Positions 31,866 to 60,500 are shown, counted from the first letter of the stretch. The stretch: DNA of 64,000 nt from Owenia fusiformis (GCA_903813345.2 CAIIXF020000001.1:6386001-6450000); one strand, 5' to 3'. Notes: generated by a model from the letters alone, not told the origin. Numbers and translations are program-made.

Positions 31866-32485
31866 ATCTAAATGTGAATCATCTTATAATGATGAATCTA
31901 AATGTGAATCATCTTATAATGATGAATCTAAATGTGAATCATCTTATAATGATGAATCTAAATGTGAATCATCTTATAATGATGAATCTAAATGTGAATC
32001 ATCTTATAATGATGAACCTAAATGTGAATCATCTTATAATGATGAATCTAAATGTGAATCATCTTATAATGATGAATCTAAATGTGAATCATCTTATAAT
32101 GATGAACCTAAATGTGAATCATCTTATAATGATGAACCTAAATGTGAATCATCTTATAATGATCATCCTCCTAAACAGGTATCCAGAATCCGTACCTCCT
32201 TCTTCCCCCTGCTATAACCAATTTGGAAGCGCCCGATTAAAATGAATCACGTGATCTTATTATGCGCAACGACTTATACATGATTTCTGTCGCAGTGTTG
32301 TGACAGCCAATCAGATTGCGAGTTCTTAATTGTGGAAAGGCTAACTGCTTATCGCAGGGGGTAAAAAGAAAGAATATATTCTGGATTTTGAAGCCCTGTG
32401 ATCAGAGGATGATAATGATGAACCTAAATGTGAATCATCTTATAATGATGAATCTAAATGTGAATCATCTTATAATGATGAATCT
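31866..32485. repeat. 30-bp minisatellite (10 + ~2.5 copies) downstream of the aminotransferase stop, interrupted by a MITE
   Basis: Unit atctaaatgtgaatcatcttataatgatga. Confidence 0.95.
32164..32411. mobile_element. 248-bp MITE with CAT..ATG termini and 8-bp TSD (P- or hAT-like)
   Basis: ataatgat|catcctc...atccagaat ... attctggat...gaggatg|ataatgat. Confidence 0.7.
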
Positions 32486-33795: not shown

Positions 33796-35647
33796 TCATG
33801 TAGGTTGAATATAAAAACCAGGAAGTTTTGACCTAATTCTTGGTTGTTTTTCCCAACCAAGAGAATGGTTAGGAATTTTTACTTTTCCCCCTCCTGGTTC
33901 ATGATTGTAATTGTCCAGAGATCCCACACGTGACTTTCCCTTCCACAGCATTGGCGATGTCCTTATTTGGATTTCACCACCACCTGGTTTATGGTATATA
34001 TTGTCCCTACTGCCAATTTTAGATTGCGCTAATTTGCTCGTTTGATTTTTACTTCTCACAGACTGAGGGACATAACCCATAGGCCTGTTGAGAGGTTTCA
34101 TCAATTTGGGAGTTTCATGTTGCGTTCTAACAGATTCCATCAAATATGGACTTCGCTGGTTATATCTAGAAATTGATTTATCATTGTTCATTTTGGTTGA
34201 CTGGTATAATGATCCATATGTTGGAGTATGACTGTTCCTTGTTTGGGCTTCACTTCTAGGACTTCCTTCATGCTCATAATTGTTTCTATTAGCAAGAGTT
34301 TTCTTTGGCCGTTTCCCTTTTCTTTTTAGGAGAAAGTTGGAATTGTATCCAGTTGTAGCACCAAGACTGTCATGGTTGGGAGGAACATTTGCATTGTAAG
34401 AGTTTTCATCATGTGATACATGGAGTGGACTCAGATGAACACCCTTGTGAGTGGTTTGTTTGTTATGTTTGGTCTTTTTAACTTCAACTTTGAACCCTTG
34501 CTTGTCTTTATATTGTTTAGGCTTATGTATCCTCGCTTCAGCTTTCTTAGATTTCACAAAATCACTTTCATCGATTATTTTTAATTCTTCCATATTTTTC
34601 ACATATGCTTCATAATCAAAATTTGGATTTGGTTCAGTTTTTGTGAAATAATCAACTCCTCTACTTAGTGGTCTCTGAGTTGAATACTCCAAGGCACCTG
34701 TATTAGAAGTCCTAAAAAATCCTGTAGATCCTTTCTTTGGTTTTTCATCCACCCACTCATTCATGGAATCTCCACTTATGTTAATGCTTGGGAGAGGCTT
34801 CCACTTTCCCCATCTCATAGTACCTTCAACATTGTTGATGTCCACATCTCCTCCCCCTGGTTTATAATGGATATTACCCAAAGATCCACATCTTGATTTT
34901 TTCTCCCATTTTGGTTTCTGGTCAAATATGGGCATGTTTCCACCCAAGGGCTTATGGTTGATATTATCCAGAGAACCAATTTTGGCTTCTTTCTTCCAAC
35001 AAATTCTGTTTTTCTCCAGAATAACATCCCCACCACCTGGCATGTGAGAGATCTTTTCAAGGGATCCAATTTTGGGCTTCGCTTTCCATTTCAATTTTCC
35101 TGGCTGAAACATAAAAAAACTTTTTACCATTTACATTTATCATTGCATGATATAAAATGATTATCAGCCATATATCTGAATGATAAATGAATTTGAATTT
35201 TTGATTGGAATCATGGAATAGTATAGACCAATTATAAGATCATTTCTAGTAATACCATCATCATTTTATTGGCTCTAGATATCACAAGTAAGCGAAGCAA
35301 ATGAGAGTTATCAACTCATCGATAAAAATGATATCACTCAAAATGATTTGATATTCTGGGGTTCGTTTTTCGTACGATCGTAACTTACGATTCCGAGAAA
35401 ACCATTTGTCTCTGTTTTGATGAACAATGACTTGCGACCAAATCGTAAGTTACGATGGTTTCAAAAACGGACCCCTGTATATAACGTACAAATGGATTAA
35501 TTGTTGAATCATGATTATCATTGAAAATGGGTATCTTTTAGAGTTGAACTTCTAGGTACAAACATTTTCTATTTCAAAATAAACAAGACATACCTTGCTT
35601 ATGTATCTGTATGTCTCCGGAGCAGTATCATCCTCCAAGTCAGACAT
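33796..35647 (-). CDS. Second tau/MAP2-family protein (453 aa): 3 N-terminal + 2 C-terminal microtubule-binding repeats separated by a long basic low-complexity linker
   Basis: Exon 35647-35594 (MSDLEDDTAPETYRYISK|gtatgt) joins in phase 0 to exon 35103-33796 (acceptor tttatgtttcag); repeats KIGSLEKISHMPGGG, KIGSLDNINHKPLGG, RCGSLGNIHYKPGGG ... KIGSRDNIYHKPGGG, RVGSLDNYNHEPGGG. Candidate non-coding upstream exon with GTATGT donor near 36548. The large exon could alternatively be a third last exon of the upstream tau gene. Confidence 0.75.
35359..35474. mobile_element. PIF/Harbinger-like mini-MITE (CTG TSD)
   Basis: ctg|gggttcgttttt...atcgtaacttacgatt ... aatcgtaagttacgat...aaaaacggaccc|ctg. 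Confidence 0.6.
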
Positions 35648-36686
35648 CCTAACAGTTTATGGCTGACCTTCCCCTATAATTTATATTTTGGTCATGTACT
35701 CTAGTTCTAATAGTAATTTGTTCCACTAGGTCGATGAAGAATTTATCCATTTTTAACAGTCATGAAGTTGTTTTTAATCACTCTTATTTTGAAATGGTCA
35801 TAACAGAAACTTTCTCAATTGATTTTTGTACATGGTACAGTTAATTTTGGTTTAGTAAACACATCTGTTTCGAGAACACAACTCTCTTATGAACTCATCA
35901 TCCTATCAGGAACAGATATTTCTTTTATTTTAACATTGTATTCAATTAATTTCCATAAAAAGTAGATGAAAACCTACTATACAAAAAATATGTATATCTC
36001 TAGTTTTCACACAGCATGTGTTTTTATATGCATGGTGTCACTGTATATTGATCTGGGCAAAGGTTTAATCCAAAGCAGGTTAATCTTTGCTTGTTGTTAA
36101 GGACATGGATTTATAACCTTTTGTGGGTGTTGTAGTGTAGTTCTATTAAATAAAGAACTGAAAGGGTTTGAATAAAGGGTTTTAATGCTTGACATTGATC
36201 GATTATTCAAATAGTTGATCCAATAATATATATACATTATTTATGAAAGTATATGCACAATGAAAGGGGGTTGCATTCATTTTAAATTACAAAACATTAT
36301 ATTCATACTAAACAATATATAAATATATAAAATATAAATATATGATTGAGCTTCTTTTGTTTGTTTTAACCCAGTGAAATTCATTAAAAGTCATTACCTT
36401 TTTTTGGAATTTTGAAATTAATTAAAACATTATAAAAATGAATGATACTATATTGCCCATGAATGGAATTCATTTATGTAACAGTTGAAAATCATTTTTA
36501 TTTTGCTGAATTGAAATAATGACAAGAATAAATCTAAATAAAACATACCTGTGATGTTTGCAATGTAAAGCAGCACTTCTCTTTACATTCACAATCTTCA
36601 AAGAGAAACTCTTGCTGAACTCTTCTCATTATGTGAAGATATCAAATTAATATCACTAATTAACAAATTACTCTGCGGCAAAGTGA

Positions 36687-36700
36687 GTTGCCATAGTTAC
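36687..36700. promoter_or_regulatory. RFX X-box-like motif upstream of the second tau-like gene
   Basis: GTTGCCATAGTTAC, ~140 bp 5' (minus-strand sense) of the candidate first-exon donor near 36548. Confidence 0.5.
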
Positions 36701-39533: not shown

Positions 39534-42500
39534 CTATTTGTCCCCATGGTCTGTTTTTGATGTGGCATTCTCATTGAATGACAGCCTTTTGGACTCAATC
39601 TGGAAATACAAATACACTGAATGTATCTTAAACAGAACAATTTAAAAAGTCAGTTGATTATGTTTCATGGCTCCAAACATTATGCAAACAATTTTTTAGA
39701 ATAATTCCTGAAATAATTAATTTGCTTATTTAAATTATCAGAACTTATCTCAGTCACTGACACCAACTCAAACAGATGAAAATGAAATGAACTCTTAAAA
39801 ACAATTGATACAAGTAAATGATATGTTAAAAATGATTGGCATTTAAATGTGCTACAAGCATAAACATGTGCGGAAACAACACAACGCAACAAGGCATTAA
39901 TATGCAAAATGTCACCATCTGTAATATGTTATAGACACCAACCAGCTAACACCATCCACAAAAAATGGTGGTGACATAAAATGATAGAGGACAAATCAAA
40001 CATGTGCCACAGCAGTTTGTAATTTTTGATCCATACAACACAATGAAACACATAGTGGAAATCAAGACATGTGGAAGTTAGAAGCAAAATGTTCACAGGG
40101 GTTTTGTTGTTAGATTAAATCCTCATTTCAAATATGTGTAAAACTAAGAAAACTTCCACTGCAGAAAAATATCACTCCGCGTAGACTTACGCTACCACTT
40201 GGATAACTTCATTCAACATCTCATGCAGTTTCTGCCCATATGGATCCACCTGTATTAATTGACCATCAGATCCCTAGTCTATATTCAAAACATCATCAAA
40301 ATGTTCAACGTAGCTTTAGAGAAACATTTTGCTTGGTATCTCTTTTATTAAATTAGTATTTTTCAGTTGCATAAGTGAACAGTTCTTCACGATCCTTATG
40401 AAGTTTGGTAGCTTTAAAATGTACATTTGTATTGCACATTGTCAACATCTGTTAGTAGACTACAGGCATTCTAGAAGCCCCATACATCACTTCAAGTCAA
40501 ACAACCTTGTTATTGGTCAACACTGGCCTGTCCTCTAGACATTTGACTATTGTATAACTGTTTTATGTAGTTGAGAATGGTTCAGAGTTTGCCCTTGGTC
40601 TAGCAGACTGTATGGGTGTTAGAAGTCTCCTCGATTTTTTAGTAAAATTGTCCTGAGATGAGCCAGCCCTTAAGCCAGCACACCAAATAGGTTTCTCATC
40701 AATTATCTTCACGTCACCTCCCCTGGGTGTATGGGAAGTATTGTCCAATGATCCAACTTTAGAAAGTTTCTTCCACTTTGTGATTTTATTATATATAGGT
40801 GCAAATCCTCCCTGTGGTTTATGTGAAATATTTTCTAATGAACCAACTTTTGACCAAGCGTTCCATTCAAGTTTCTCATTGGGAATTACAACATCGCCAC
40901 CTTTAGATATATGATAGATATTCTCCATTGAGCCAACTTTAGATTTAGCCTGCCAATTTAAAGGAACTGTCTCAATCTTTTTATCTCCACCAAATGGTAC
41001 ATGGTCAATATTATCCAAAGAGCCAACCTTTGATGTAGCATTCAACTTAAGGGGACTATCTTCAATTATCTTATCCCCACCGCCTGGAATATGCTTCACA
41101 TTGTCCAAAGAACCAACTTTTGGCAGAGCTTTCCACATGAGTTTAAGTTTCTGAATTGCCACATGCCCACCACCTGGGGCATGTACTAGGTTTTCTAGAG
41201 ATCCAATTTTTGAAGATGTACTCCATTTCAAAGGAACTGAAAATATCTGAAGAAAAAGCAGAATAAGACAGAAAAGAATGCATGCATGCAGTTGCTATAT
41301 AAGGTATATCCAGTTGATTTGTGAAGTAAAAAAGTTGGAAAATAAAAATGTTGAATGGCAGTCTTGTTTTCCTGTGGTGAATGAATACAATCATGTATAC
41401 AATGTAGTTTATATGTAGATGCACTCGGGGAGAAGCACATGCTATCTAGGTATCTAATAAGTGTCTACTACAACAAAAAGACTAAGCATTATGGAAGCAC
41501 AAAACTAGCAGGTTATTTCTGTATCATGTCTATCTATTATCTACATGCCAACCAAGGTTCAATCAAAGTATATCATCCTTTAAACACGGGAGAAGGATTC
41601 AGTGTATAGTACATCCCTTTGTTTGAAAGATGAAATAATTTGATTCAATGATTCCACATTACATCAATCCCTATCAATCCCTATTCCCCCACTTTGCAGT
41701 TTATAGCACAAACCATATGCCACATCATTTTATAATGAACATACACCGCTATACTATATGACTATGTAGCCATGTGTAAATTACCTTTTTATCACCACCC
41801 TTGGGTGTATGTGAGGCATTGTCTAAGGAACCAACTTTGGACTCTGCCTTCCAGTTTAGCTTCTGTGATTCAATCTGTAGGAGCACAATATAAATTAAAT
41901 TAAGAAACAATAGTATTACATGCACAATTAGAACAATAAAATAAATGTGCGCTATCATTACTGGAGATACATTCATTGTTCTATGATGATTAAAGAAAGA
42001 AATGAGGAATCGTTGATAGTATTTTTGACCCTTTTCCTCTTTATGCTAACCTTTCTTGATTTCAAATTTCGAATTGCCAGGCCTTATTTTGCATGCTATA
42101 TTCCAACGACTCTGTGTTTTAAGAATTCTTTTATGAACTCTTCAATGTGAACAGCTAAAGCCAAACTCCATTCGTCTCAACCAATATTGTGCATCAATTT
42201 ACCTTTTTATCACCCCCTCCAGGCGTGTGGTCAGTTTTAGAGCCCACCTTTGACTGTGCCTTGTCTTTAAAATCCAATTTTTGTGTTTCAATCTAAAAGT
42301 ACACAAATAACAAGATCAGCACTGTTGTATTGGTACATGTAAATGCTTTAATAAACATGTATTTACGTGAGAATGATTTGATGAAAAAGAAGAGATTATT
42401 TTATGATTTGTGTAAGAAACAATGATGTGCTTAATATTTCTATTAACTGATATGTGCATTTGGTTATCATTAACATTATACAATACTTGATAATGTAAAA

Positions 42501-45500
42501 TACAAAACTGAGATTTTCATTGTTACAGGTGAAAACTAGATTTGTACGAGGGGTGATCAAAAAGTTCTGGAGTCAGTCAATCAAACCTCAAAATGTTACA
42601 GCCACAGTATTCATTTGTAAAAATCTTATTGCTTTTGGTTTGACTGACCCACTAGTCTGCCTTTTCACCTTAAATGATGCATTACTGTGTTATCAGAAAA
42701 TGATCACTAATTTTGTTATAAAAGGTTTTAAAAGTTGGTCAAAAGTATGTATAACTTGTTAAGGAGAATAAGTTCACTTAGTCAAAACATGCTAGGTTAA
42801 TCAAAACAATTGTTAATATTATGTTGAATAAATTTTGATTTCAAAAACGTGAAATAATACATCGCAATCTCAATCAGGAATAGGTCAACACTACAACCTT
42901 TGATGTGTCGAAAAATTAAGCAAATATAGCTTGAGAAAATATCTGTGCAGAGAGCTTACTTAATTTGTGCATTGTGTATTATAAAGCATACTCTCTTCAT
43001 TGTGAACAATAAATGGAAATTACTGTGCACATCAAACATTTTAAAAGTAACATTTTTCTCATTTGCTTTATATGTTGGTAGAGGAGAACAGATTAATATT
43101 TATCTTTTCAAAGTGGTTCCCATCTATTCATATACAGCAATTGAAAAATTGGGAGTATTATGTGCTTTAATTCACTATTCGCTACAACATTCAGAACCTT
43201 AGAATATCTACAATCAAATAAACAACATAGAATTATACAGTGAATAAATTCCATATTCATCCCTAAAATCAAAAAATAAAGGAAATAAAGGAGACACATT
43301 TCTACAATAAATGGTGTTAGAGGAAGTGAAAATATGAAAATTTGAATATTATTAGTATGTCAGTGCTACCCACACAATAAACATGGTTATGTGTATTATG
43401 TGAAATTTACACAAGGTACATCACCGAAAAGTGTGTCATTTACTTTAACATCCCCACCACCTGGCGTATGGTGTGCGTTATCCAATGAGCCAATCCTGGA
43501 TGAGGCACCCTCTCGGAAACCAAGTCTCTCATTTAGTATTATAATATTACCGCCACTTGGTGAATGGTCCACATTGTCAAGGGAGCCAATCTTTGACTCA
43601 GTTCGCCATTCCAGTTTCTGACTAACTATCTAGCAAGCAAACCATGGTGCAACGCAATATTAGGCTAAACTAACTAAATGTCACGTTTAGCAGTGTTTGG
43701 ATTTGTGAAAGGTGAGGAAGTGGGGCTATTAATCATGGGTAATAAAATGTCTTTCTCAAATACCGTATTCACTGTTATTACCGCCCACTCTCTAATAAGC
43801 GCCCACCCCGCTTCACAAAGTTCAAGAAACATCGAGGAATCAACAAGAATTGAAGAATATATCAGGAAAAAAATATTTCTCAAAATCCAGGAGCGGGCGG
43901 TAATAGAGTACTTACCCTAAAACTGCTGTAAACACGACGCGTTTTGTAATTCTATGCATCCTCTCGATACATATCTATCGATGGGTGCTTCCCACACCAT
44001 ACCATGCTAATATTGTCTCCAAATAGTCCATAATGAATGAAGGAATTGTTCTTTATCGGCATTCAGAAATTTCAAAAGCTACTGCGCAGATGTTCTGCGC
44101 ATGTCAAGGTCGTGAACTTTCTGGTTTCTTTTTACTGTTTCTCGACTTTTACACGACTTTTGCACGAATAATGATGATCTCTCATCAAATTAGAAATAAT
44201 GTATAACTTTAGATCGATATCCAGCAGTCTCTAGTGGAAATATTGAAGGTAATCGGCGATAATGACAAAGTGGGCGTGCCGGAAATAAATTAGACATAGA
44301 CGGGTCTTCAACCACTGTCAATATTGTCTAAGCGATCTTTACCGTATTCTCTCCAATAACAGCACTTGTCATATTATTATAAAAATATGTTGAAGAAAAT
44401 GCATTCTTGTCAAGAAAAATTGCCATACATGAAATTCCTCGGGATTTCTGATTTCTTTCATACATGGGCGCTTATTAGAATGGTCTAAATAATGTATTTT
44501 CAATTTTCTAAACGCCCTGGGCGCTAATTACAGAGAATACGGTAGATAGAATATGTTTGATTCTTGGTCTGTTTTCAATAAATGCTGCAAGGACCTCATT
44601 TTTTGAAGAGGAAAGGAACAGCAATGTGGAAAACATTTGAATTATTTAATCTTGCCTTAATAAAGTGTAAAAGTCAAATGTGTGTTTCTCAAATGTAAGC
44701 TCAAAAATGTGAAATTATAAATAAATGAACAGTATTCTTTGAAACGATTTTGTATAAAAATTAAACTTGAAATGGACCTTAAAGGAAATAAATATTTTGG
44801 TCAGTGTATGTTCAAAGTGAGAACAACGAGTGCAGGTTACGTGCAGACATTTATTCCAGTGAAGTGAAGAAGCTAAATCATGACAGGGGATGAATGTGTT
44901 TTGATGGGTCAGTGAAATACAGGTATTGTATACAACTGCTACATAACTAGACAACAAAACAACTAAAAAATTATAGGTATATGCAGTAAATCTGTCAAGT
45001 GGAACACCTCTTAATTGCAGGTTTAAGTCCTGCTCCCATCAATCATGTAAACACGAACCTGTGTAAGTGGAACACCTACTAAGTGGAAAATTATTTTGAG
45101 GTACAAAAGGTATTCCACTCATACACAGATCCTACTGCACTATAAATTAAAACAAAAGGGTAAAACTAAAAACATATAAAAGTAAAAATGAAATAGTCTG
45201 ATACAGAAATCATGTGTAAATGGACATCAATGATGGTGTGGGAACAAATGACAAATACATGTACACAAGCGGCTTGATTGTGCGAAAAGCTGACAATATA
45301 AAATCTTACCTATCTTACTAATTAAAGTACATGTAGTGTAATCTCTATTCTCACTATGCCTTAATTCTTGACTACATATTATTGTATACAATTATACCTT
45401 CAAATCCCCTTTCATACAGTTAACACATTCTAAGCCAATCAAACTGAGACAATGAACAAAAATAATACCCAGTTTTACCTTCTTTTCACCACCACCTGGT

Positions 45501-48500
45501 TTATGTTTTGCATTTTCTAAACTGCCGACTTTGGAATTGACGGACCACTCAAGTTTCTCAGTTATGATCTAAAGTGATCAGTGTAAAAAGCAAGTTAATT
45601 AGTTTCTTGATTTTCTCTTATTACGAGATATTGTTGAAATAAGCTGCAATATTTCTGTATAAGCTTTCAATATTCATATGCCTAGTTCTTCATGATTTTT
45701 TGAAATATTTATATTTGAATTATTGGCTTGAGGGTTCAAACAGAAAAGCTTTTAAAAATAAAAAATAAAAATTCTGGTTGGTATTGTTCATAGTAATTAC
45801 ATATTCATTATTTAATAAACAGAAAAGCATTTCAAAAATTTATCCTTCTCTAGCACAGAATATTTTTTGTAGACTTTATTTTTTGAGAATTGATGGTTAA
45901 TGTGCTTATAAAATGTTACCTCTCATACTCTCATGATTTCAAAGATGTTTCAACATACAGAAAATCAACATACATCTATACATTCACTCATATGTTCTGC
46001 TACTAATCTGATTATTTGGACACAAAAATAAGGATTACCTTTTTCTCTCCCCCACCAGGTTTATGGTTTGAGTTATCTAAACTGCCCACTTTCGATTCAA
46101 CCTTCCAGTCGAGTTTCTTAGTTGTGATCTATTAGATCATGGAAAAGGAACCAAAATACGTCGGTTAGACTTAAGTAACTGTTGTGACTTGTAAAATGTT
46201 ATTCAAACTTTGTAGAATTAATATCCACAATTAAGAAAACTGACATATGTGCCTATTTATTTTCCTTCATAGAAAAATAGTCAACTTATCACATTCAACA
46301 TAGAAAGGTAATATTGAGGTATGAATCAATTCTACACCTTTCATTCTGTCAGACAAAAATCTTTGACAATCATCCATTAGAAGATAATTTATCATAGATT
46401 AATTTCACATTTTTTCATCCATTCATAGATGCTTACAGATTGGATAAATAAAAATAACTAAAATAATTATAAAATATTACCATCACTTCATTACCTTTTT
46501 TTCTCCACCTCCTGCTTTATGTTTGGCATTATCTAAGCTGCCGACTCGCGACTCAACTTTCCAATCGAGTTTTCGACTCTCAATCTGGATGATTGAAAAA
46601 GAAACCAAGAAACCTTGAAATTAGAGTTTTTTAACCTAAATATGGAAGATTAAAAAATAAATTGGAATACTTCTAAAGAATTGTAATATTTTTCCTGATG
46701 ATCTCCTATTGATTAGGAAATAAGTAGCTGTACATCACATACAAATGTAGTGTTTTCATCAATTTAGGTCCATGATGATGTAAACAATGTAGAACTGAAC
46801 TAAATTCTGACAATTGTGGGCCCATGTGCTCAAAATAGTAAAGTGACTCTTATCAAATGGACAAGAAGGGACAGAGATGAGGTGAGACTAAGTTTCGAAA
46901 AAATAGTCACATTTTTACAATATTTTTTCACTCATCATTCAATATGCCTATTTTTGAATAAAAATGTTATCTGGATCTGGGGACATCCCCTTTTTTAATA
47001 TTCATGAATTTGGACATTTCCGCATCTTAAATCTTCAATAACTTCTATTGTCAATTTTTCATAAAAATGGGAAAGGGAAACATTGATTGCAAGATTAACT
47101 GCTTCAAACATTCTCGTCATCTATCCCTTCTAAATCCTTTTTGCCCAATAAAGGTGGTACCACATCTATAAATATATAATATATTTATTGATATCTGTGA
47201 TCTAAAAATACTGCCTTTTAAGATGAAGTCTTTATTTCATTAAAAATATTTGAATGAAAATATGTTCAAATTAGATGAAAAGATTTACCTTTTTATCTCC
47301 ACCCCCTGCTTTATGATTTGTTTTAGATCCAACTTTGGATTCAGCTTTCCAGTTAAGTTTCTGGGATTCAATCTAGAATAAATATAGAAGACAGTATTTG
47401 AAACACTTTTGTAACCATGGTTCCTGCCATAGTAAAGGAATGTCAAAACTTGACAAAATATTCATGTCCCAGTATCTTAAACTGGGGGAGGGTGGCTATT
47501 TGCTAATGCCTCTTCTCTATAGTGTACATATTGGTTAATAATAAATCCATGTGAAGTGAATATATCCCATATTTTCACAATACGATATACATGATTTCAA
47601 CATGTCACAACATCATATGCTAATGGCTCTCAGGCCCGTAAGACACTTTTCTCCAAGGGGAGTGCGGTTTTTAGCTTACTAAAGAGAATATAAAATTGTC
47701 ATTTTTTTGCCGCGTAAATCAAATCGCGTAAGACAGAGGGGGGGGGTCAGTTACTCCCTATATTGGTTTGGAATTAACAAATGCAACTTCCAAACGTTCC
47801 AATTGTTTTGTGGGGGGTGTGAAGTGGTCCACTCCCTATAGAAAATTTTAGTTTTGAGATGCTATTTTGTGCTTTCTGGGCACTTTCAAAGTGTAAGTTT
47901 CTAAGTAGTACGCCACCACCACGGGAATAAGAGTTGAGTGAATAAAAAACCGAGCATTCAGGGGGGTCTGGTGGTTCTCCCCCAGGAAAATTGTGAAATT
48001 TGGTTGTATTTGGAGCGAATTTGCAACCATCTGGTACGCCTGTGCGTTATGAGTCAATACGAAAAATGTGAATATTTTCAAATTCTTTTGGGGGTGTCAA
48101 AGGGGATGAGAGGGTGAAGTGGGGTGGGGTGCCAGTAGGGGAGCAAGGGGTTGTCCCCCAGAAACATTGACCATATCAAGGTGCTATTTGATGATGTCTG
48201 GGCACTTAAAAAATGTCTGAGACAATACATGAAATTCAGAATATTTTCTTTTGTTTTGTGGGGGATGTGAGGGGTGGCTAACTCTCCTAGAAAATTTTAC
48301 AATTTAAAGATGATATTTGGTGCTTCTGGGCACTTTTAAAGTGTATTAGTCAATAAAAACATTGAAAAACAATCACATTTTTTTTCAAATTTTGGGGGTG
48401 TCAAAGGGGGGGGGGAGGGGTGCCACAGGGGGAGGTGGGGCTGGGGTGCCAGAGGGGGAGCAAGTGTTTGTCCCCCATATCAAAATTTACAATATCAAGA

Positions 48501-51500
48501 TGCTATTCGATGAAGTTTGGGCACTTTAAAAGTGTCTGTGCCTAAAAGTGCCTATTTCCCAAGAAAATTTTACAATTTTAAGATGCTATTTGGTGCTTTC
48601 TAGGCACTTTCAAAGGGTATGGGTCAATAAAAAAATTTGAAAAATCTCAATTTCTTTTTTTTTGGGGGGGGGGTGTTAAGGGAGGGGGGCTGCCAGAGGG
48701 GGAGGTGGAGTGGGGATGCCAGAGGGCGAGTAAGTGTTAGTGTTCCAGAATCATTAACTTTATCAAGGAGCTATTTGATGATGTCTGGGCAATTTAAAAG
48801 TGTCTGACAAATTCAGAACTTTTCCATTGTTTTGTTTGGGGTGTGAGGGGTGGCCCACTCCCCCTAGAAAATTTTACAATTTTACGACGCTATTTGGTGC
48901 TTTCTGGGCACTTTCAAAGTGTATGAGTCAATTAAAGAATTTGAGAAAATCACAATTTTTTTTGGGGGGGATCAAGGGGGGCGCCAGAGGGGGGGGGGGG
49001 GGGTTATGCAAGTGCAAGATGCAAGAGGGGGAGTAAGTCCCCCAGAAACACTAACTATATCAAGGATATTTGATGATATCTGGGCACTTTAAAAGTGTCT
49101 GAGACAAAACTCTAAAATAAATTTAGAACTTTTCCATTGTTTTGTGGGGGGTGTGAGAAGTGGCCAATACCGCTAGAAAATTTTACAATTTTAAGATGCT
49201 ATTTGGTGCTTTCTGGGTACTTTCAAAGTGTATGAGTCAATGAAAAAATTACAAAAAAAATATTTTTCAAAATTTTTTTTTCAAATTTATTTTGGGGGGT
49301 GACAAAGGGGGGTGCGGTCGCACCCATCGCACCCCCCCCCCATCTGACGGCCCTGGCTCTGAACCATCATTAACAATACCGCCAAACATGGTCCACAAAA
49401 AGTGGTGTGGTGGTGACATATACGCATAAAATGCCATATATCCCATGAATAAAACATTTCTTATGATTCTCCTTATGCTGATGGTAATGTGTGATATGAA
49501 TTAGCTTTCAAGAGGGTATATGGGTACAATATATTACATACCTTCTTGTCTCCTCCACCTGCTTTGTGGTCAGTCTTTGAACCAATCTTTGACTCTGCTT
49601 TCCAGTTAAGCTTTTGGGTTTCAATCTATAATATGGAATATCAAGGCATTATCATGCAAAATGTCATCACCTGCTATTTGTTGCAGCCGCCGAATGCCAA
49701 CCACTTAATGCCAAACACCAACCACTTAACCCTGAATGCCAAACACCATCCACTGTTGCGGCTTGCATTGACTGAAATCTTATTGAATTGGTGGGCTTTC
49801 TATCTCAGTTTTAGTTCTGGATTTCAGCAAGTTGCTAATTCATTTGATAATTGCTTACTTATCAGAAAGTTGAGAATAGGTTCTACTGCTTTATAAAAAT
49901 ATGTTTGTTTTTAAATGAGTACTCCAATGATTCCCTCATTACAATAAATGTTCTTTAACATACCTTCTTGTCTCCCCCACCAGGTTTATGAGTTGTTTTT
50001 GATCCTACTTTTGATTCTACTTTCCAATTCAGTTTCTGGCTCTCAATCTGGAAAAAGAAATGTGAACAATATTACATCTCCCAATTGTATAAATATATAA
50101 ACATCATATAGTATTATTTTAACATTTGCAGTAATAATTTTGGATGTTCTCTTTCGGCAGAAATAAATAGTAACAGTGGACATGATGTTATCATAACCAA
50201 AACTGACATATTATGGCAAACACACATGTTATGATTAAATACCTTAATACAATATTAATTACTTAAAAACTGACATTTCCTGGCTTTTATAGGGTATCCC
50301 AAAAGTAAGTTGCAGTTATTAATAATACTGAAATTACGCTTTGGCCACCTTGAAATGATATAGGAAAGGTTTTATTAATGAAAAATTATTTTTAGAAAAA
50401 TGTTAGACATGTTTTGATTATACTCATGTGTAAGATTATAAAGGTCAAATATCAAAATGCCATTTTTACCCAAAAATAATTGAATTTGGAGGGAAATTTG
50501 TTAATCAAATCAAAATCAAATAATTTTAATGATGATGGCAATGATAATTTCTAATAACTGGTGATGTGACCCTTTCGGGGGAGGGGGTTTTAATACCTTC
50601 TTATCCCCTCCACCAGCTTTGTGGTTTGTAACAGAGCCAACTTTAGACTGGGCTTTGGATCCAAAGTCCAGTTTCTGACTCTGAATCTAGAAGTAAAGTG
50701 CAAGTGTTAACATGTTAAATATAAAAGTGTTAACATGTTAAATATAAAAATGTTAACATGTTAAATATAATTAAAAAACACATACAATTTGTAAATGTTA
50801 ACTATACAGTGTACATGTTAGAGGGTATAGAGATGTCAAGAAATTCAACTTGTTTAATTTCTGTTCATAAATCAAATTCCATTTGTGCTCCAAAAAGTTG
50901 GAACAAGAAGTATTGTATGCGTGTTAGCACTTACAACACTGCTTAGTACTTGATTATGTCCATCAATACAAATATAGTGCTTTGTGCATATGAAAAACTG
51001 GGAGGAGTGGTAAAGTGTGAGATTAAGTGATCTTTATTATACGGTGCAGTATTATGATCATCATCATCTTCATCGATGAAACCCTATGGAGTGAATACAG
51101 TATTAGACGTATATTGATTAGCTTTGTCTATTATGTAGTCTCATTTGGTAAAACAAATAAATGTTAGATCAACAACATTGACAATCCAGTCAATGATTGT
51201 TATATTCTGGTATCTTTTTTAAAAGAATAAAGAAAAGAACATGACATAGAAGACAAAAAGCAGCAACAGACATTCTACAAGAGCTGCATACAAGCATTGA
51301 TTACCCAATGTCATCTTAGACTTTCGTGGCCTCGTTGGATCAATATACAAACCTTAAATCCCCCACCTCCAGGGGAATGTGTCATGTTGTCTCTTGATCC
51401 TATCTTAGATTGAGCATCCCAGCTGAGTCTCTTTGATTCTATCTACACAAATAGTGAAACAAAAGCAAACAAAAATAAATCACAAAACCTGTAAGCAATA

Positions 51501-54500
51501 AACGACTCTGCAAGATCATATAATGTCTTTTGAGCTGTTTCCTTCAAACATGATTTTTAGATCAAAGCAACTAAAGCAAATGACCCAGAGCAGAGATCTG
51601 AATGATTATTTTCCGAGCTTTAAAGAAAGGTGAATTTCCTCGTAAGAAAATAGATACCTGATCACAGTTACCAACAAGACCTTAACATATTGTGAGCGGT
51701 TGAGCTGGACATCCTGCCAAGCTTACTGATACAGATAGATATATGGCACATAGACCCGGAAGCTCACAATATCATGAGGTTTGGTTAGTACCCCTGCTGA
51801 TTATACAACTCAGAAGTAGTTTCAAAATAATCATTCAAATCACTGGGACCATATCACACTGATTTTAATAACACATAGTAAAAAGTTGTCACAAACATAA
51901 GCAAAATGGAAAAATTAACAGTTGAGGACATTTAAAGAGCGTCATGTTAAGGACACAAACAACAATAAAAATGCAATCAATAAATAAAATGATATCTTAA
52001 CCCCCTGAACGATACATCTTAAATAATCAATGTATCTCAACTCCCTAAATAATACATCTCAAATCCCTGAATGATATACCTTAACCCCCTAAATGATACA
52101 TCTTAACATCTTAAATAATAATTAATGTATCTCAACTCCCTAAATAATACATATCAAATCCCTGAATGATATATCTTAACCCCCTGATTGATACATCTTG
52201 ACATCTTAAATAATAATTAATGTATCTCAACTCCCTAAATAATACATATCAAATCCCTGAATGATATATCTCAACTCCATGAATGATATTTCCCAACCCC
52301 CTGAATGATATTTCTCAACCCCCTGAATAATACATTTCAACCCCATGATTGATATTTCTGAACACTCTGAAGGATATATCTTAACCCCCTAAATAAGACA
52401 TTTCAAATCCCAGTATGATATATCTCGATCCCCTGAATGATATTTCTCAACCCCCTGGACATAATGTCTTAACCCTTTAGATAATGTATCTCAACACTCT
52501 GAATGATATATCTTAATCCCCTAAATAATGTATTCAACCCCCTGAATGTTATATCTTAACTCCCCAAATATTGTATCTTGACATTCTAAATAATGAACCT
52601 TACTCCCCTAAAAATAATGTAAAACAACCCCCTTAATGATATTTCCCAACCCCCTGAATGGTATTAACCCCCTATATAACTCAAGGCCCTGAATGATATA
52701 TCTCAACCCTCTAAATAATGCATAGCAACCCCCTGAATCATATATCTCAACCCTCTAAATAATGCATAGCAACCCCCTTAATGATATTTCTCAACCTCCT
52801 GAATGATATCAACCCCTTATATAATTCATCTCAACCCCCTTAATGATATATCTCAACCCTGTGGATGATATAAACCCACTGGTTCATTTACCTCAACCCA
52901 CATGCAACATCTCTTCTCCCTACCTTCTTAGCTCCTCCCCCTGGAGAGTGTTTAGTATTCTCCTTGGAGCCAATCTTAGACTTTGCGTCCCAGCTAAGTC
53001 TCTTGCTATCAATCTAGTGTGATTATATATACAGAAGTACAGTATATTGGATATAATAATAGAGATATCTGGTCCATCAAACTAGAATATCATACTTGCC
53101 AACATTCAATCTGGAGAATTCCAAATAGTTTACGAAATGTAGCATCTAAGTTTTGTTTGTTTTTTGTTTTTGTTTGTTTGTATGTTTGTTTGTCCATTTG
53201 ATTCGTAAATGAGCCTGTATATAGCTCTATTGTATACTATATTTCAGAGAGTAATTAAGTAGGTTTTTATTCTCACATCATCATTGCAACACTTTGATAT
53301 CTGCATAGTTTACGATCTTTTACAGGCCATTTGCTTTCAAAAAGTAGCTTTCAACAAGCTGACTGTAAGGATGGTACTTTTGAAATAACAATCGCTTCTT
53401 ATTGGATAGAAATGTTTGAATGTTGGCAGGTTAACAATATCATATAGTAAAAGATATCACACAAAGAAAGATGATTAAAAAACAAATCTATGAAAACAAG
53501 TGCTTCATTTCAGTAAAAGATAAGTTGAATTGTTACTCAACTCAGAGCTTCTTAGTATTAAATATTTAAATAATTTTACTGAGATGAACTAAGCACAACA
53601 CTCTAAGAAAAGGTGCCCTCTATCAGAATGATAGTTAATCTAGATAATTTATACTAATTTAGGCTCTGTGTACTAAATGTGATACAACAGTATAAATTCT
53701 ACTGCAAAGGGAGAAGGTTAATATGTAAAGGTTCATTAAGTACTCGGAGGTATTGGATAAAGGGTTTATCTCGAGGGATATTTCTGTATTAGATGCCCTG
53801 ATATTTCAAGAAGGACATCTCAATTTGGTCCTTCAGCAGGGAGATATAATAATATCCCACGGGATAAACCCTATATCCAAAGCCTCCCGTTACATAACCC
53901 TTATATTCAAACTATTGGCCGTGCCCCTATGAGTAAATGCAGTGATCAGGATAATGAAATAACAACACACTAAACCAGGGCTTTTCAAAAGTGCCCATGA
54001 TTTATCTAATGAGAAAGTGAGTAAAACTATTATTTTATAAAATATGAGTCAAAATCCATCATTCCATCAGGTCAAATGTATTTGGGTCTGTTTCACTTAA
54101 GTCAATATTCTCATCAAGTCCCTTATAAGTTAGCTTACCCAAGTTGTCTATGGTGGCTTGGCAATTGTAACCCATGCAATGTCACTCAACAACAGGCTAT
54201 TATTCTCACCTTTTTATCTCCACCACCAGGCTTGTGTGTCGCATTGTCTTTAGAGCCACATTTACTTTGCACTTTGCTGACATCTACCTTCTTGCTTTCA
54301 ATCTTCACCTGAAACAGAATAAGATTTCAGTGAAGACACAAACACAACATTAAATAATAATAGAGGCATGGGAAAATAAATGGGGATAATCCTCGAGCTC
54401 AAAAGTTTGAACACCATACAAAAAGAGTGTTAATGGGTAAGTGTTCATTATTATACAAATAATGACTGTCATTGAGGGCAATAGTGTAAATTATTTCCCC

Positions 54501-57500
54501 CAGGGAATATTCTCTTAAATATACTATTCCCGAAGCCGCAGATGGTATTTAGCTAAAGAAAACATATTTCAAACATGATGTATAAAATTGATTTCAACAG
54601 TTAATTCAATAATTAGGGTAACGAATCAGGAGTAATCATTAGAGAATGACTTGTATCATAAACTAAATATGTGTGTTACTAATCTTGGATCACTTAAATC
54701 AAAAATAAATATATGAGAGCTATATTATCATCACATTCTTTATAGCATTAGTATATCTTATTGAATAGTAGTATAAATATTACCAAACTGACCACTTGCA
54801 GCTGTCAATGTGATTAAGGTCATTAATGACAGGTGATAAGATACTGAGGCATCTTTACTACCAACGCACTATGTTACTACTAATACAGAAATTGTACTTA
54901 AATGTGTTCCCTTACAGGCTTCATCATGATTTATAAGAAATATGGCAACATCTGAATAACTTTTCAAAACAAAACTTGTGCAAAATGGACCTCTAAATGC
55001 GCTCCTTAGTGATTTTCAAATTGTATAATGTCTTGAAAAAAAAAAAACTTTTTTCTTTGAACTTACAAAACAATTATTTACCCCATTACCATTTGTACGC
55101 CTAGGTTAATTAGAAAATGGGTAAACTGTAAACTTTGATTTCATCTATGATCTCATTGAACATTGAGCTCTTTCGTTTAGAGATGAGGTATACAATTTTT
55201 CCAGTCCCTCTATCCATAGAAGGGTCAACAACTAGTACTGAGTGTGCACTTTCTGGATAATGTTTCATCTGAAAAATATGTAGATGGTACCAACTTACAT
55301 TGCCACCTCCTGGGGTATGCTTGGCATTGTCCAATGAGCCTATTTTGGACCTTGGGGTGGTGGCCTTTCTTGGACTGGTAGCCTGGAACAAAGAAAAAAA
55401 ACATTGCAATGATGGCCGCAAGTTGATTGATTTCAAAAACTGAAAGGCAATTCTGTACTTGAAAGATCAAAAGTGTTAACTGTGACACTTCTTTACTTCC
55501 AGATCTTACTGATGACCAAAAGCGTTGCACGTTGATGTCTTGGAAAATCTGAATTAGATATCATCGGCCTCTTAATTCAAATGGAAATCTCAAGTTTTAC
55601 CTTGACAAAGTAAGGTCAAAGGATCAGAAAAATGCAATACAAAATACACCTACAGAAGGAGTAATATCAACAGCAAAAACTAAACCCTTCATATCTTATC
55701 AATATTTATTATGTATTAGATAAAGTGATAATCTCAAAGAGAACTTGGCCCTACCTTCTTGCCAGATCCCCCATCATCTATCCCACTGTCTGATGATGTA
55801 TCTAAAATGGTAAACAACATTCTGTTGATAGAGTTTAGATAAGAGATGAATAAGGAGAAATATTTCTTTATCTTAAATTCACTTCAGTAAAATTAGAAAT
55901 GTAAATCTTTAAATAATTAAAGATGCTCTACTTTAAATTCATTTGTTGAACATTACGTATCATCTCATGACAAATTGTCAAATTTAAAAGTTAAATCCCC
56001 AGAATACAGTATAGGAAACTGAGACTTGAGGATGAAAGTTGTTTGTCCTTAACATAGCATTCTCTGAACACAAGACGTTGTAATAGATGTATATGTGCAA
56101 TCCATGCAACTACAATAAAAATGATTAAAGATGATTAAAAATAAATATTCATTTATCATGTGATAAGTATCATTTATCATGTGATAAGTATTGTGCAAAC
56201 TACAACATGCAATGTAACTACAGTACTACATATACAGTGTATATATTTATTCATTGGAACATTTTACAACATGCATGTTTATCGAAAATATCTTGTGTAT
56301 ATTATCTATATGTTTGAAGGTGCATAATAAAAGAAAAATAAGGGCAATGTGAATGATGGTTAAATGATAAATACAGCTATATGTAAATATTATCATAGAG
56401 GAATAAATAATTATACTGTTTTTACTACATGTCATTGATTGGACCAAAATGTATATATTATTAATTTAAAATATAAGGTAAGAGATGCTAAATAATTTGT
56501 AATCATGGCCTAATATTTACTTTCCATGGGAATCTTTTGAGTTGGAATAATACTGGAATAGTACATGCACAATGATCATCAAATAAATAAAAAAAATTAA
56601 TAAATAAAATGTCTAAATCAATGACGCAAAAACAAAACATAAATTAACCTAGGAACACTAGATCAATATATCCTATATAAAAGCAGTAGCCATATTTGTA
56701 ATGAGCATAAAATAATTAATACTGGGTCATGGATCGATATGAAATTATATGAAGTGCACCATAATAATAACAAACGCATGTGTTTTAGCTATCCCTTTAT
56801 GGCAATATGCCATCTCTCGCATATTTTAGGTTATATATTCCCTGGAGTAAATCTTGCACCTGTTAACAAATGCATTTGGAATCACCTTTTGTGAGTCCAT
56901 TAAAAACAAAATTTGTTTCTATAGTATGAATATATTGTTCAAAATATGCTTTAAAGCAGGGATGTTTATATAGACATCCTTGTTTCAAGAAAGGCAGTTG
57001 TTTAGACCTAATATTTTCCAGAAATGGAGAGGATTAACTCATGAAAATTTTCAATTTATCATAGAGTAAGTAAGTAAGTAAGGTATTTATTCAATTTATC
57101 GTAGAAACCTATGCCCCAATCAGAAACTTTGGGGACTTCAACCTCAGAATCAACACCAAATGAATTTTTACCATCCAGGGGCCTACTATTATACTGTTCA
57201 TAGTAATGAATGTTCATAAGTCCATTGTTAAATTTAGGAATTGTGAATGTTCGAACAGCCCCTAGCTAAATATATTGTTATAAAATCAACAACAGAAGTT
57301 TGATTCTTATTGTTCAAATTATCATAATTAATCATTCATAAAGTAATTCCATACCCCAGCTTGTGGACTTTTCTGAATTATATTACCAAAGCATTGAATG
57401 TAGTCCCAGGATAAGTGAACTTATGAATCTCTTCAACTGAACATTATGTCACATACAGATGTGGAACCTCACACATATTTAATCCTAAATTAACACACTA

Positions 57501-60500
57501 AATAATTATATGTCCTGAATTTAGAAATTATTTAATATTATTTTTTCAAGTTTTCCTCAAGTTATAACATGACTGGATAAGTCATTAAATCAAACCATTT
57601 TCAGTTCTGCCATTTTGACATAAACAAACCTATTTGAATAATGCTCAACTTACCTTTGTGATCTTTATTCATCTTTTGAAGTAGCTACATCTATGCAATA
57701 TTATCCTTATAACGATGATTTTCTTAATCAGATCAATTATATAAATAATTCAAAATGTTTTCAGTATTGGACTTACCAACCATTGAACCATAACTGATTA
57801 TTTTTACAATTGATTTAGGAAAACATATGTTTTCCTTTCCCATTTATATCGTGAAAGAAAATGCCTGAGATGTGTGAATTGCTTTCTTTATTATAATGTT
57901 CCCCAGGGTCATATATCTCTCCCAGCTGAAAATCTCACTCTATTATCACATTAGTAATCCATACAATTCCTCTCAAGATCAAGTGTCTTTTTTCCTGTGT
58001 TCCAATATAATTTGAATTATAAATTCCACACCTAAGTTATACTTCAAACCTGGATATAGTTTCACTCTTAACTCAGTTTTGAATTTCAAAACTAAGCAGT
58101 AGAACTTTTTATCCCTAGTTCTATAATATATTTCTGCAGGCAAGGCTTTGATTGCCTTCAACTTCTATACAGTTGCCATGGCAACCAGGTAAACAGACTC
58201 AGGAAATTGACAGGTTAATTCCTTAGATGTAATTTATTATCAAAGTAATGATAAGGATATAATTAATATCAACTAAAATCGAATGAAAAATACTTCAAAA
58301 ATAATCAGGAAATCAGACAGAAAAATTAATACCCGTATCTTTAAATCAATTTAAGAATTGAATTAAGGTCATTTGTTGATGTGCAACCTAGATTGTGTAC
58401 CCATATGGAATAAGATATGATGTGCAAATCTTTAATATGTGTAGCATGCTGTTAGATTGACTGCTATATTCTAAACAAAATCAAATTTAATCATACATAA
58501 ATCAAAATTTGACAATCATTTTTAATAAAATGTTTTTTTTCATTTTACATGTTCAGTAAATGATTCTATTGTCAAATTCTGACTTGTTAGTTTGAAATTC
58601 AATGTGTATCATTTATAATGCAATAAACTCAGTACAACTGGCTCAGTATTAAAAATAATATATTTGGAAGATTTTCCACGAGTAGTGATGACTCAAGGTG
58701 CATTTGATATTACTCTTTTGTGACAGTATTTCCCTTGGGGGTTAACAAGATAACATCAAAACACCTGACCTGCCAAGTTGACCTCATAGTCATATTTTTG
58801 GCCATTTATCAATTACATTTTGGCTATATGTCAATTAGATCATTCTTAAATGATACACATGAATTTTGAATACAACTTCAAAAGCAATATCAAATAAAAA
58901 TAAAAAATCAGGATGGTGCACTAAAATATGAATCTGAAACAGAATGTGAAGCACATGCATAAATGTGAAACAAAATGTGAAACATGCAGTGTACAATATC
59001 TATGTAGCAGTTGCACCTTGTTTTCTGGGAGTTGCAGGTTTAGCTGGTGCAGTTGAAGGTCTACTAATCGTTCTTGTTGTTGTTGTTTTAATTGTTGTTG
59101 TTGCTGACTTTGTTCTCTCCCGAGGGGTGCTGTTTGTGGTCCTAGATGCCACACTGACCCCACTTGTTGTAGTACTAGATTTAACACTTGGGGACTTGAG
59201 TTTTGACTTTGTGGTGGTTGCAGGGGCGGTAGAGGGTCGGGGGGTTTTTGGACTCTCTTTGTCTTTGGGAGTAGATTTTGGGCTTGATGGAATTTTAGAG
59301 CTAGTGATCTTACGTGGACTACCTGTATGAGTTATCACCTGGGACTTAGGAGATTCTGTCTTTTTAGGGCTCGAGGGAGCACTTGTTTTTCTGGGACTCG
59401 AAGGAGCACTTGTTTTTCTGGGACTCGAAGGAGCACTTGTTTTACTGGGACTCGATGGAGCTTTTATTTTTTCAGGACTTTTTGATTTTGATTCAATAAT
59501 TTTGTCAGGGGTAGGTTGTTTGATTGGTTTCGTTTCGGTTTCGTTTAAATTTGGGGGAGTTTGATTTATCTGGACATCCTCTAGTTTAGGGGGTGGTGGC
59601 AGTTCCACATCTGACTCGGGAGAGATACTAACCATGGATTCAATTTGATCTGAATGAGTTTCAATGGTGGTTATAGTTTCAAAGGTTGAATTAGCATTTC
59701 TTTCAATGGCTGAAACTGTATTTGCTTCTCTTGTGTTATTTGTTTCAACTGTTGTGTTTTCTACAGATGTGCTAGTAGATTCAACAACAACAGACCCCCC
59801 AAGTAAATCTGGTAAAGATGGCATTGTATTCTCTTTATCGTGATCTGGGTCCACTGGAGCAACATATGGTTCAAATAAGTCATTAGGGGCTGCAAATGGT
59901 TCAAATGTGGATACATCTGGATTTTCAATATTACCTTGTGGAACAACTTGGTCTTCAATGGTTTCAGGGGCACTGGGCATAGAAAATGGATCAAAGTCAC
60001 TGAATTGAGACTGGGGAGGGTTTGTGTTTATGTCTTGTCTGTTATCAATGGGGGCTTGTGGTTGAGCATTATCAGAGAGTGCCTCGAGGTCAATCAGGGT
60101 GGTGGCATCTGTAGCGGGTTGCCCAGTATCATGATTAAGCTCAAAGCTAGCTGACTCAGGATTAGCCGCCTCCTGGCTGGGTGGCTCAAGGCTTGTCGGT
60201 TCTGACATTAACCCAGACATAGTAAATTGTCCACTCAAGTATGCACTATCGGCCGTGCCTGGGGGTGACTGGAAAGGTTCTGAACTCAATGGAGGAGCAT
60301 TCAGGTCAAAGTTCAGTAAATCATTTGCTGTTGCAGGTTGTTGTTTATTCGGTATCTCTGATAGACCATTTGTAAATGGATTTGTGGAATTATTTGAGAA
60401 GGGATTTGTTGAGGCATAATCACCATTCATGACTGGTGGTGAGACCATCACACCTTCATCTGTGCTGACATCTCCATTAATCTTATTCTCATCTAAAAGT

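Follow-up and report, generated by a model that had tools for sequence, protein, structure and literature searches.

The X-boxes of invertebrate RFX targets are usually promoter-proximal. Among the true targets of dRFX, palindromic X-boxes are over-represented, an X-box upstream of an ATG is on its own 'not predictive' of dRFX dependence, and conservation of the X-box in related species is given as the predictive criterion (Laurencon 2007, PMC2375033). Here, we describe a locus of the annelid Owenia fusiformis that contains two genes of the tau/MAP2/MAP4 family (genes A and B) and an X-box (X-box 1) within gene A. Like the sites of the RFX ciliary regulon (DAF-19, dRFX, RFX1-3), X-box 1 is an ideal 14-bp palindrome that conforms to strict patterns, and candidate exon ends follow it at a distance of a few hundred bp; unlike them, it is intronic, and its putative target is a tau-family MAP gene. 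Our literature search found no X-box link to the tau/MAP2/MAP4 family, and no tau, MAP2, or MAP4 gene is mentioned in the main texts of two papers on RFX2 targets.

In vertebrates, the short forms of MAP2 and tau arise by splicing. Gene A resembles vertebrate MAP2c/MAP2b and small/big tau in having a long projection exon whose in-frame omission leaves a mostly microtubule-binding product, but it differs in its number of repeats (21, versus 3–5 in vertebrate MAP2/tau) and in the internal promoter that an earlier note on this DNA had proposed for it. In planarians, which are spiralians like the host of gene B, the MAP2/Tau paralogues Smed-MAPT-L2 and -L3 have few or no other domains and are testis-enriched (PMC6743461). 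They are at most putative orthologues of gene B, whose spacer has no match elsewhere; in contrast to the proposal made for this locus, that paper's account of these genes connects them with neither RFX nor an X-box, and their RNAi produced no sperm phenotype. MAP4, which has the same repeat family as genes A and B, binds the axonemal microtubules of the primary cilium and restricts the length of the cilium (Ghossoub 2013, as cited in PMC8724769, which also gives knock-down data). However, it is a ubiquitous vertebrate MAP, and the account of its ciliary role in PMC8724769 describes neither an isoform dedicated to cilia nor control by RFX. The claim of the earlier note that a ciliary or sperm role is not described for the tau family was thus too strong, and because testis-enriched tau paralogues and axonemal MAP4 have already been published, only the RFX link would be new. 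Finally, molluscs have many-repeat MAPs, such as a 10-repeat Crassostrea gigas protein (PMC8985376). As in gene A, PF00418 repeats are multiplied within one protein, but the genomic capacity of gene A is 21 repeats, and an annelid case is absent from that paper.

Two tandem genes of the tau/MAP2/MAP4 family

The window, that is, the whole 64,000-nt stretch of DNA analysed, contains genes A and B as a tandem pair on the minus strand. The genome measures 505.8 Mb, of which repeats make up 43%, and the public data for O. fusiformis comprise RNA-seq from 14 stages, which run from blastula to juvenile, and from nine tissues of the adult, among them testes, head, and prostomium, as well as ATAC-seq (PMC9977687). 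Both genes encode the C-terminal tandem 31-aa tubulin-binding repeats (KxGS ... PGGG) that define the family. In a Pfam profile search with a cut-off of 27 bits, gene A yielded 6 + 2 + 13 PF00418 repeats, all above the cut-off, and gene B yielded five PF00418 stretches (E 5.7e-43). In the explanation that we favour for the locus, gene A encodes a putative projection domain and up to 21 tubulin-binding repeats, and gene B is a diverged paralogue that lacks such a domain.

PF00418 matches also occurred among proteins named as those of Mucoromycota and Glomeromycota fungi. These fungi are not known to have cilia, and the repeats are therefore not bound up with axonemes.

In gene A, 21 PF00418 repeats, spread over 15 exons, come after a projection exon of 1476 nt:

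59017..60492, minus strand: projection-domain exon of 1476 nt, phase 1-1, with an open frame rich in S/T/P, acceptor ttttag/AT and donor CAAG/GTGCAA
55755..55801, minus strand: DTSSDSG exon, entered in phase 1
55299..55382, minus strand: exon with the first, partial PF00418 repeat (40.7 bits against the cut-off of 27)
41782..54308, minus strand: thirteen phase-0 repeat exons, located by tblastn and AG/GT borders
Minus strand, starts at 54308, 53013, 51442, 50686, 50047, 49625, 47372, ~46584, 46128, 45568, 42292, and ~41874: twelve single-repeat exons
43396..43629, minus strand: two-repeat exon with two PF00418 stretches, the two repeats at 43441–43629
40563..41246, minus strand: last coding exon, with six PF00418 repeats and the stop codon (E 2e-61)

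All 13 single-exon translations (the 12 single-repeat exons and the exon at 55299–55382) passed the PF00418 cut-off. The projection exon, with 492 codons, matched no Pfam family and joins the exon at 55801 in frame. It is symmetric (phase 1-1), and the next exon is entered in phase 1, so that the frame is kept when it is skipped, as in the MAP2c/big-tau type of cassette. A candidate N-terminal exon near 63 kb was a weak match (E 0.045 among 148 queries).

The gene A protein did not turn up in the protein searches. A search with the last exon against proteins of 427–2000 aa returned 13 proteins, none of them from Owenia, and the two-repeat exon, searched against proteins of 112–2000 aa, returned 240 proteins, with no near-identical match among the 120 listed. 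In a representative protein library, the best match was P0128, from another species, with at most 78% identity over single repeats.

A palindromic X-box in an intron of gene A

The intron that directly follows the projection exon, 3.2 kb in length, contains the motif at which the earlier note had placed a perfect X-box palindrome:

58172..58185, no strand assigned: X-box 1, perfect 14-bp palindromic RFX motif GTTGCCATGGCAAC, in the gene A intron between the projection exon and the DTSSDSG exon

The sequence GTTGCCATGGCAAC has one exact match in the window, which is also the sole match to GTNRCCNNRGYAAC (0.06 expected). When tested against four published X-box patterns (PMC2375033), X-box 1 agreed with the accepted consensus in its strictest versions, GYTRYY N1-3 RRHRAC and RTNRCC N1-3 RGYAAC. 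Markov models of order 0–5, for whose training X-box 1 was masked in the window, gave a chance expectation for the exact 14-mer of 0.6–2.4e-4 per 64 kb window, or about 0.5–2 per 505.8-Mb genome. An unselected origin of X-box 1 is therefore unlikely, and it is probably not a chance match.

Three other origins of the motif were considered and rejected. X-box 1 does not belong to a repeat element within the window, where its flanks occur once; none of 20 ORFs exceeded the Pfam cut-off as a nested protein gene; and there was no Rfam match that would indicate an RNA family.

The reading that we prefer, with a confidence somewhat short of even, is that X-box 1 is a genuine high-affinity RFX-binding element that acts on gene A from within the intron. 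RFX, bound between the projection exon and the microtubule-binding exons, would then serve in one of two ways: X-box 1 could belong to an internal promoter near 57.7–57.9 kb, as its proximal element, or it could be an intronic enhancer of gene A. In either arrangement, tau would additionally be expressed where RFX is present, for example in spermatids, ciliated epithelia, or ciliated sensory neurons. An RFX element at X-box 1 is plausible but unproven: the sequence shows a rare motif, the exon phases, two consensus donors downstream of the motif, and a phase-compatible ATG, whereas binding by RFX, a start of transcription, the cell types involved, and a connection with the axoneme are inferred.

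Candidate exons downstream of X-box 1

In the sense direction of gene A, two consensus GTAAGT donors lie 396 and 519 bp downstream of X-box 1, and they delimit two candidate exons:

57777..57843, minus strand: candidate upstream alternative exon, ending TGGTTG/GTAAGT, with an in-frame phase-1 ATG at 57843; motif-level only
57654..57690, minus strand: candidate 37-nt exon, cataG/ATGTAG...AAAG/GTAAGT, with an ATG at 57672

Much of what the earlier note had described here was recovered in the sequence. The GTAAGT donor that it had placed about 400 bp from X-box 1 begins at 57776, 396 bp away, and its 37-nt candidate exon with an ATG is present at 57690–57654, reads MNKDHK from the ATG at 57672, and makes a phase-1 join to the DTSSDSG exon at 55801–55755. 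The short isoform of ~490 aa that it had predicted has to be revised upwards, because the short product of all exons comprises 694–696 aa and 21 repeats. Stop codons precede the ATG at 57672 in all three frames, and the candidate 37-nt exon, if spliced after the projection exon, leads to a stop eight codons on. Its acceptor is weak, with a purine/AT-rich sequence. The last nucleotide of each candidate exon is a G in phase 1, which matches what the DTSSDSG exon requires. Nevertheless, an in-frame ATG near a donor is not informative, because a phase-compatible in-frame ATG is common at GTRAGT sites (minus strand, 5 of 18; plus strand, 6 of 38). The Owenia protein found, the annotated gene B protein, shows no MNKDHK start, and the protein searches returned no gene A protein that could show one.

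The same exon structure bears on a second reading, which is a real possibility, although we consider it only around one third probable: neither X-box-like motif is regulatory, the locus is an ordinary tau-family gene pair, any short form of gene A arises by skipping the projection exon, and gene B is transcribed from its own ordinary promoter. Because the projection exon of 1476 nt is symmetric and can be skipped in frame, a short form is possible without an internal promoter, and the projection-less form could equally arise in this way. The degenerate X-box patterns occur in the window at chance frequency (82 sites against ~78 expected, and 7 against ~6), an X-box alone is described as 'not predictive' (PMC2375033), and the motif was picked once the gene had been seen, among very many windows scanned. 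X-box-like 14-mers are also carried by a repeated element in the window, an inverted repeat, which, in a genome with 43% repeats, is a point against the RFX reading of X-box 1. On the other hand, a reading with no regulatory role has to accommodate an exact 14-mer expected about 1e-4 times per window and 0.5–2 times per genome, and the fact that two of the six consensus donors (GTRAGT sites) in 17.8 kb of gene A come just after X-box 1.

Gene B and the second X-box-like motif

The separate downstream tau-like gene reported in the earlier note is gene B, which corresponds to an annotated 383-aa O. fusiformis protein (P0001). Its genomic ORF has five repeats and lacks a projection domain, and it starts with MSDLEDDTAPETYRYISK at 35647, as does P0001:

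36687..36700, plus strand: X-box-like motif 2 (X-box 2), GTTGCCATAGTTAC (GTAACTATGGCAAC in gene orientation), with one perfect and one deviant half-site
36549..36680, minus strand: non-coding exon that may be the first of gene B, with CACAG/GTATGT as its 3' border; motif-level only
35594..35647, minus strand: start-codon exon of gene B (MSDLEDDTAPETYRYISK), 100% identical to P0001 residues 1–18 by tblastn
33796..35103, minus strand: main exon of gene B, with three N-terminal and two C-terminal PF00418 repeats and 98.9% identity to P0001 residues 15–368

The spacer of ~260 aa between the repeat blocks of gene B has no match elsewhere, and its homologues align over the repeats only. The X-box-like motif claimed for position 36687, ~140 bp from a candidate first exon, stood as to its location, with GTTGCCATAGTTAC at 36687–36700 and a GT donor at 36548 about 140 bp away, but not as to its quality. 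It has 3 mismatches to the palindrome over 14 positions, deviates at the 3rd/12th consensus position, and fits none of the four accepted patterns of PMC2375033. The window contains six sites with three or fewer mismatches to the palindrome, against 2.33 expected by chance; a single inverted repeat accounts, with its copies, for two of these sites. X-box 2 is thus probably a chance half-site, and gene B probably has no need of RFX input; the misfit of X-box 2 and the frequency at which such sites are expected also agree with a locus in which neither motif has a regulatory role.

The full model of the earlier note, in which both X-boxes are RFX-driven promoters of projection-less tau-like proteins for cilia or sperm flagella, the long form of gene A being neuronal, appears improbable. 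It can draw on the rarity of X-box 1, its nearby donors, and the phase-compatible exon ends, together with the one perfect half-site of X-box 2, which is ~140 bp away from a GT donor that precedes the gene B start-codon exon, and it would fit with the testis-enriched MAP2/Tau paralogues of another spiralian (PMC6743461) and with MAP4 on the axonemes of primary cilia. However, it needs X-box 2, which conforms to no published pattern, and the planarian MAPT-L2/L3 knock-downs had no sperm defect according to the RNAi results in PMC6743461. The occurrence of the PF00418 family in fungi also weighs against it. The flanks of the two X-boxes are dissimilar, and homology of the two regions was accordingly rejected. 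A two-X-box 'system' is therefore not established.

We similarly regard as unlikely that RFX binds X-box 1 as a silencer and so prevents expression of gene A in non-nervous tissue, as an analogue of the action reported for RFX1/3 at the promoter region of MAP1A in cells other than neurons (Nakayama et al., cited in PMC3245922): its intragenic position downstream of the main promoter and the existence of non-ciliary RFX targets (MARK3 and TUBA1A for RFX7, PMC9981735) would suit such a role, but the precedent is a mammalian gene of another MAP family, and any likely main promoter is over 4 kb away from X-box 1 (the weak candidate N-terminal exon being near 63 kb).

Implications for the tau family

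Returning to X-box 1 as an RFX element of gene A, its most far-reaching version is that, in this early-branching annelid, an RFX-controlled promoter within the gene produces projection-less tau with up to 21 repeats in ciliated cells or spermatids, where the protein would decorate axonemal or manchette-like microtubules. We give this version a low probability. If X-box 1 did drive a short tau in sperm or ciliated cells, the conserved RFX cilia programme would gain a protein of the tau/MAP2/MAP4 family, the ancestral RFX ciliary regulon would include a tau-family MAP, and 'ciliary tau' and 'neuronal tau' would be split at one locus. It would also mean a non-neuronal, possibly ancestral job for a family studied almost only in neurons. 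At present, the case consists of a single excellent motif in an unusual location.

The build of gene A is of interest in its own right. By regular-expression count, the maximum among 335 retrieved family members was 13 repeats per protein, versus 21 genomic repeats in gene A, and this arrangement, with 21 repeats and a cassette exon, goes beyond the repeat expansions reported for molluscs.

Tandem tau-like genes

All of the features relevant to the tau-like genes lay on the minus strand, where two tandem members of the tau/MAP2/MAP4 family were found, gene A upstream and gene B downstream, with the following main exons:

Principal exons of genes A and B
60492-59017, minus: gene A projection exon, 1476 nt, S/T/P-rich, phase 1 at both ends
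55801-55755, minus: gene A DTSS exon, reading (D) and 15 further residues; the projection exon joins it in frame
35103-33796, minus: gene B main exon, five PF00418 repeats flanking a spacer

In gene A, the Pfam family PF00418 (tau/MAP tubulin-binding repeat) had six matches to the ORF at 40563-41294 and two to that at 43396-43629; all 13 short exon translations submitted, from 55379 to 41782, had one match apiece, every one exceeding the 27-bit cut-off of the family. The short repeat exons, located by tblastn with homologues, each have AG and GT borders and are in phase 0. No Pfam family matched the projection exon, from which the open frame extends for 1179 aa. Gene A thus has the genomic capacity for 21 PF00418 repeats, whereas the most in any one of 335 retrieved family members was 13 (regular-expression count); mollusc MAPs with up to 10 are reported in an excerpt of PMC8985376. 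Protein searches found no Owenia gene A protein. Between 40563 and 55382 (minus), skipping any one of 12 single-repeat phase-0 exons (84-99 nt) would keep the reading frame, and the neighbouring repeat exons at 50047, 49625, and 47372 are near-copies of one another. The first coding exon of gene A may be an ATG-bearing ORF at 62969-63080 (minus), reading ...SPYISPSPNV...LDPFCSPQN; long homologues, those of sea urchin among them, have N-termini with a weak likeness to it (LDPFASP, DSFISPYNSP), the hit having E 0.045 in a set of 148 queries.

The best match of the gene B ORF at 33796-35130 (444 aa, minus), an 'unnamed protein product [Owenia fusiformis]' of 383 aa (99% identity, 80% query coverage), identifies the window as DNA of this annelid. 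The start of gene B at 35647, MSDLEDDTAPETYRYISK, agrees with this annotated protein. The spacer between its repeats matched no other protein in the database search. The annotated protein departs from the genomic ORF after ...VPQSVR (33796-34053 and 31839-31907, minus) and lacks two good tubulin-binding repeats that the genome continues in frame; its last 15 residues have no more than a loose match (65%), which falls within a 30-bp minisatellite. The ORF match list also included annotated PF00418 repeat proteins of Mucoromycota/Glomeromycota fungi (Helicostylum, Pilobolus, Rhizophagus, Gigaspora, and Syncephalastrum). Molluscs commonly have short PF00418 proteins (290-520 aa) made up of repeats alone.

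An RFX-site palindrome within gene A

The earlier note, whose observations are partly confirmed here, had proposed that two X-boxes, each under RFX control, would give rise to projection-less tau-like proteins for cilia or sperm flagella. The first, X-box 1, does lie at 58172-58185 (GTTGCCATGGCAAC), in the 3.2-kb gene A intron between the projection and DTSS exons. Nothing else in the window matches GTNRCCNNRGYAAC (0.06 expected), and Markov models (orders 0-5) fitted to the window after masking of X-box 1 predict 0.6-2.4e-4 copies per 64 kb, or approximately 0.5-2 per 500-Mb genome; the haploid assembly measures 505.8 Mb (PMC9977687, excerpt). X-box 1 is probably more than chance. X-box-like sequence in general is not: with the patterns of Laurencon et al. 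2007 (excerpt of PMC2375033), there were 82 sites for RYYNYY N1-3 RRNRAC (~78 expected), seven for GYTRYY N1-3 RRHRAC (~6), and one, X-box 1 itself, for RTNRCC N1-3 RGYAAC (0.4-0.9).

The GTAAGT donor claimed nearby begins at 57776, 396 bp downstream in the gene direction, and another begins at 57653, 519 bp downstream; only six GTRAGT sites occur in 17.8 kb of gene A, two of them directly after X-box 1. The proposed 37-nt exon is present as sequence (57690-57654); its ATG at 57672 opens the peptide MNKDHK, and its end, AAAG|GTAAGT, is in phase 1, the phase required for joining to the DTSS exon. It cannot be an internal coding exon, because stops precede its ATG in all three frames; joined after the projection exon, it leads to a stop eight codons on. 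The ATG itself means little, since 5 of 18 minus-strand and 6 of 38 plus-strand GTRAGT sites have an in-frame ATG. These downstream features suggest the proposed reading only weakly, and the all-exon short form would be 694-696 aa rather than the ~490 aa envisaged.

A repeat element in the window was rejected as the source of X-box 1, as its flanks recur nowhere else there, and a nested protein gene or known RNA family was likewise rejected: no Rfam family was found in the window, and none of 20 ORFs of at least 60 aa (from the X-box 1 intron, the intergenic stretch at 36.9-40.5 kb, and two upstream of gene A) passed the Pfam cut-off.

The second motif

X-box 2, an X-box-like motif, is present at 36687-36700 (GTTGCCATAGTTAC), as had been claimed, but it fits none of four published patterns in the excerpt of PMC2375033. 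Three of its positions depart from the palindrome, including the 3rd/12th, a consensus T in the excerpt of Chu et al. (PMC3245922). Six sites in the window have at most three mismatches to the palindrome (2.33 expected; 3 of 100 shuffles reach six); two of them lie on the arms of a single inverted repeat (705 nt, 96% complementary), so the independent excess is only slight. The regions around X-boxes 1 and 2 were compared and are unrelated. The looser pattern GTHNYY AT RRNAAC of C. elegans would presumably accommodate X-box 2 when it is read in gene orientation.

Explanations and known systems

Our leading but tentative reading makes X-box 1 a true RFX element that acts on gene A from its intronic position. 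What the sequence shows is the motif, its rarity, the phases of the exons, and the donors; we infer RFX binding, a transcription start, and the cell type: the motif would serve as an internal promoter element or enhancer in RFX-positive cells. Nearly as plausible is that both motifs are inert and that short gene A forms arise by skipping of the projection exon, whose phase is 1 at both ends. The full two-promoter model for cilia and sperm is unlikely. We consider similarly improbable a silencing role of X-box 1 through RFX, modelled on the MAP1A promoter, for which work by Nakayama in 2003 reportedly provides a precedent.

In excerpts of the sources, MAP4 is located along the axoneme of the primary cilium (Ghossoub 2013, cited in PMC8724769) and its knock-down lengthens cilia (PMC8724769); tau and MAP2 occur in mammalian testis (cited in PMC6743461); and two of three planarian MAP2/Tau homologues are testis-enriched, with no sperm defect after RNAi (PMC6743461). 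Not all targets of RFX factors are ciliary (PMC9981735, excerpt). MAPT is down within a large cluster in RFX2-knockout human neurons, where a direct site is not claimed (PMC10900739). Neither of two RFX2 target papers names tau, MAP2, or MAP4 genes in its main text, and our literature search found no paper directly linking an X-box to any of the three. Gene A would be a possible new member of a known RFX regulon, since only the RFX link would be new.

Other features of the window

Repeats and mobile elements
2980-6519, plus: non-LTR retrotransposon ORF, 1179 aa, intact-looking, with PHD finger, endonuclease, and reverse transcriptase domains
12035-13374: minisatellite, 24 bp x 55 copies
15654-16560 and 20657-21549: inverted repeat pair on either side of ~4.1 kb; 705 nt at 96% complementarity, with further arms
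27712-29036, plus: tandem array, 13 copies of a 102-bp unit, 97% alike
31866-32163: minisatellite, 30 bp x 9.9 copies

The inverted repeat, probably a mobile element or inverted duplication, carries the X-box-like 14-mer GTTGTCATGGAAAC on each arm. The plus-strand gene that contains the 102-bp array matches Aminotran_1_2 at 24822-26041; in the array, one frame is open for 321 + 151 aa, and the unit ends AAG|GTAAAT, resembling an exon plus donor.
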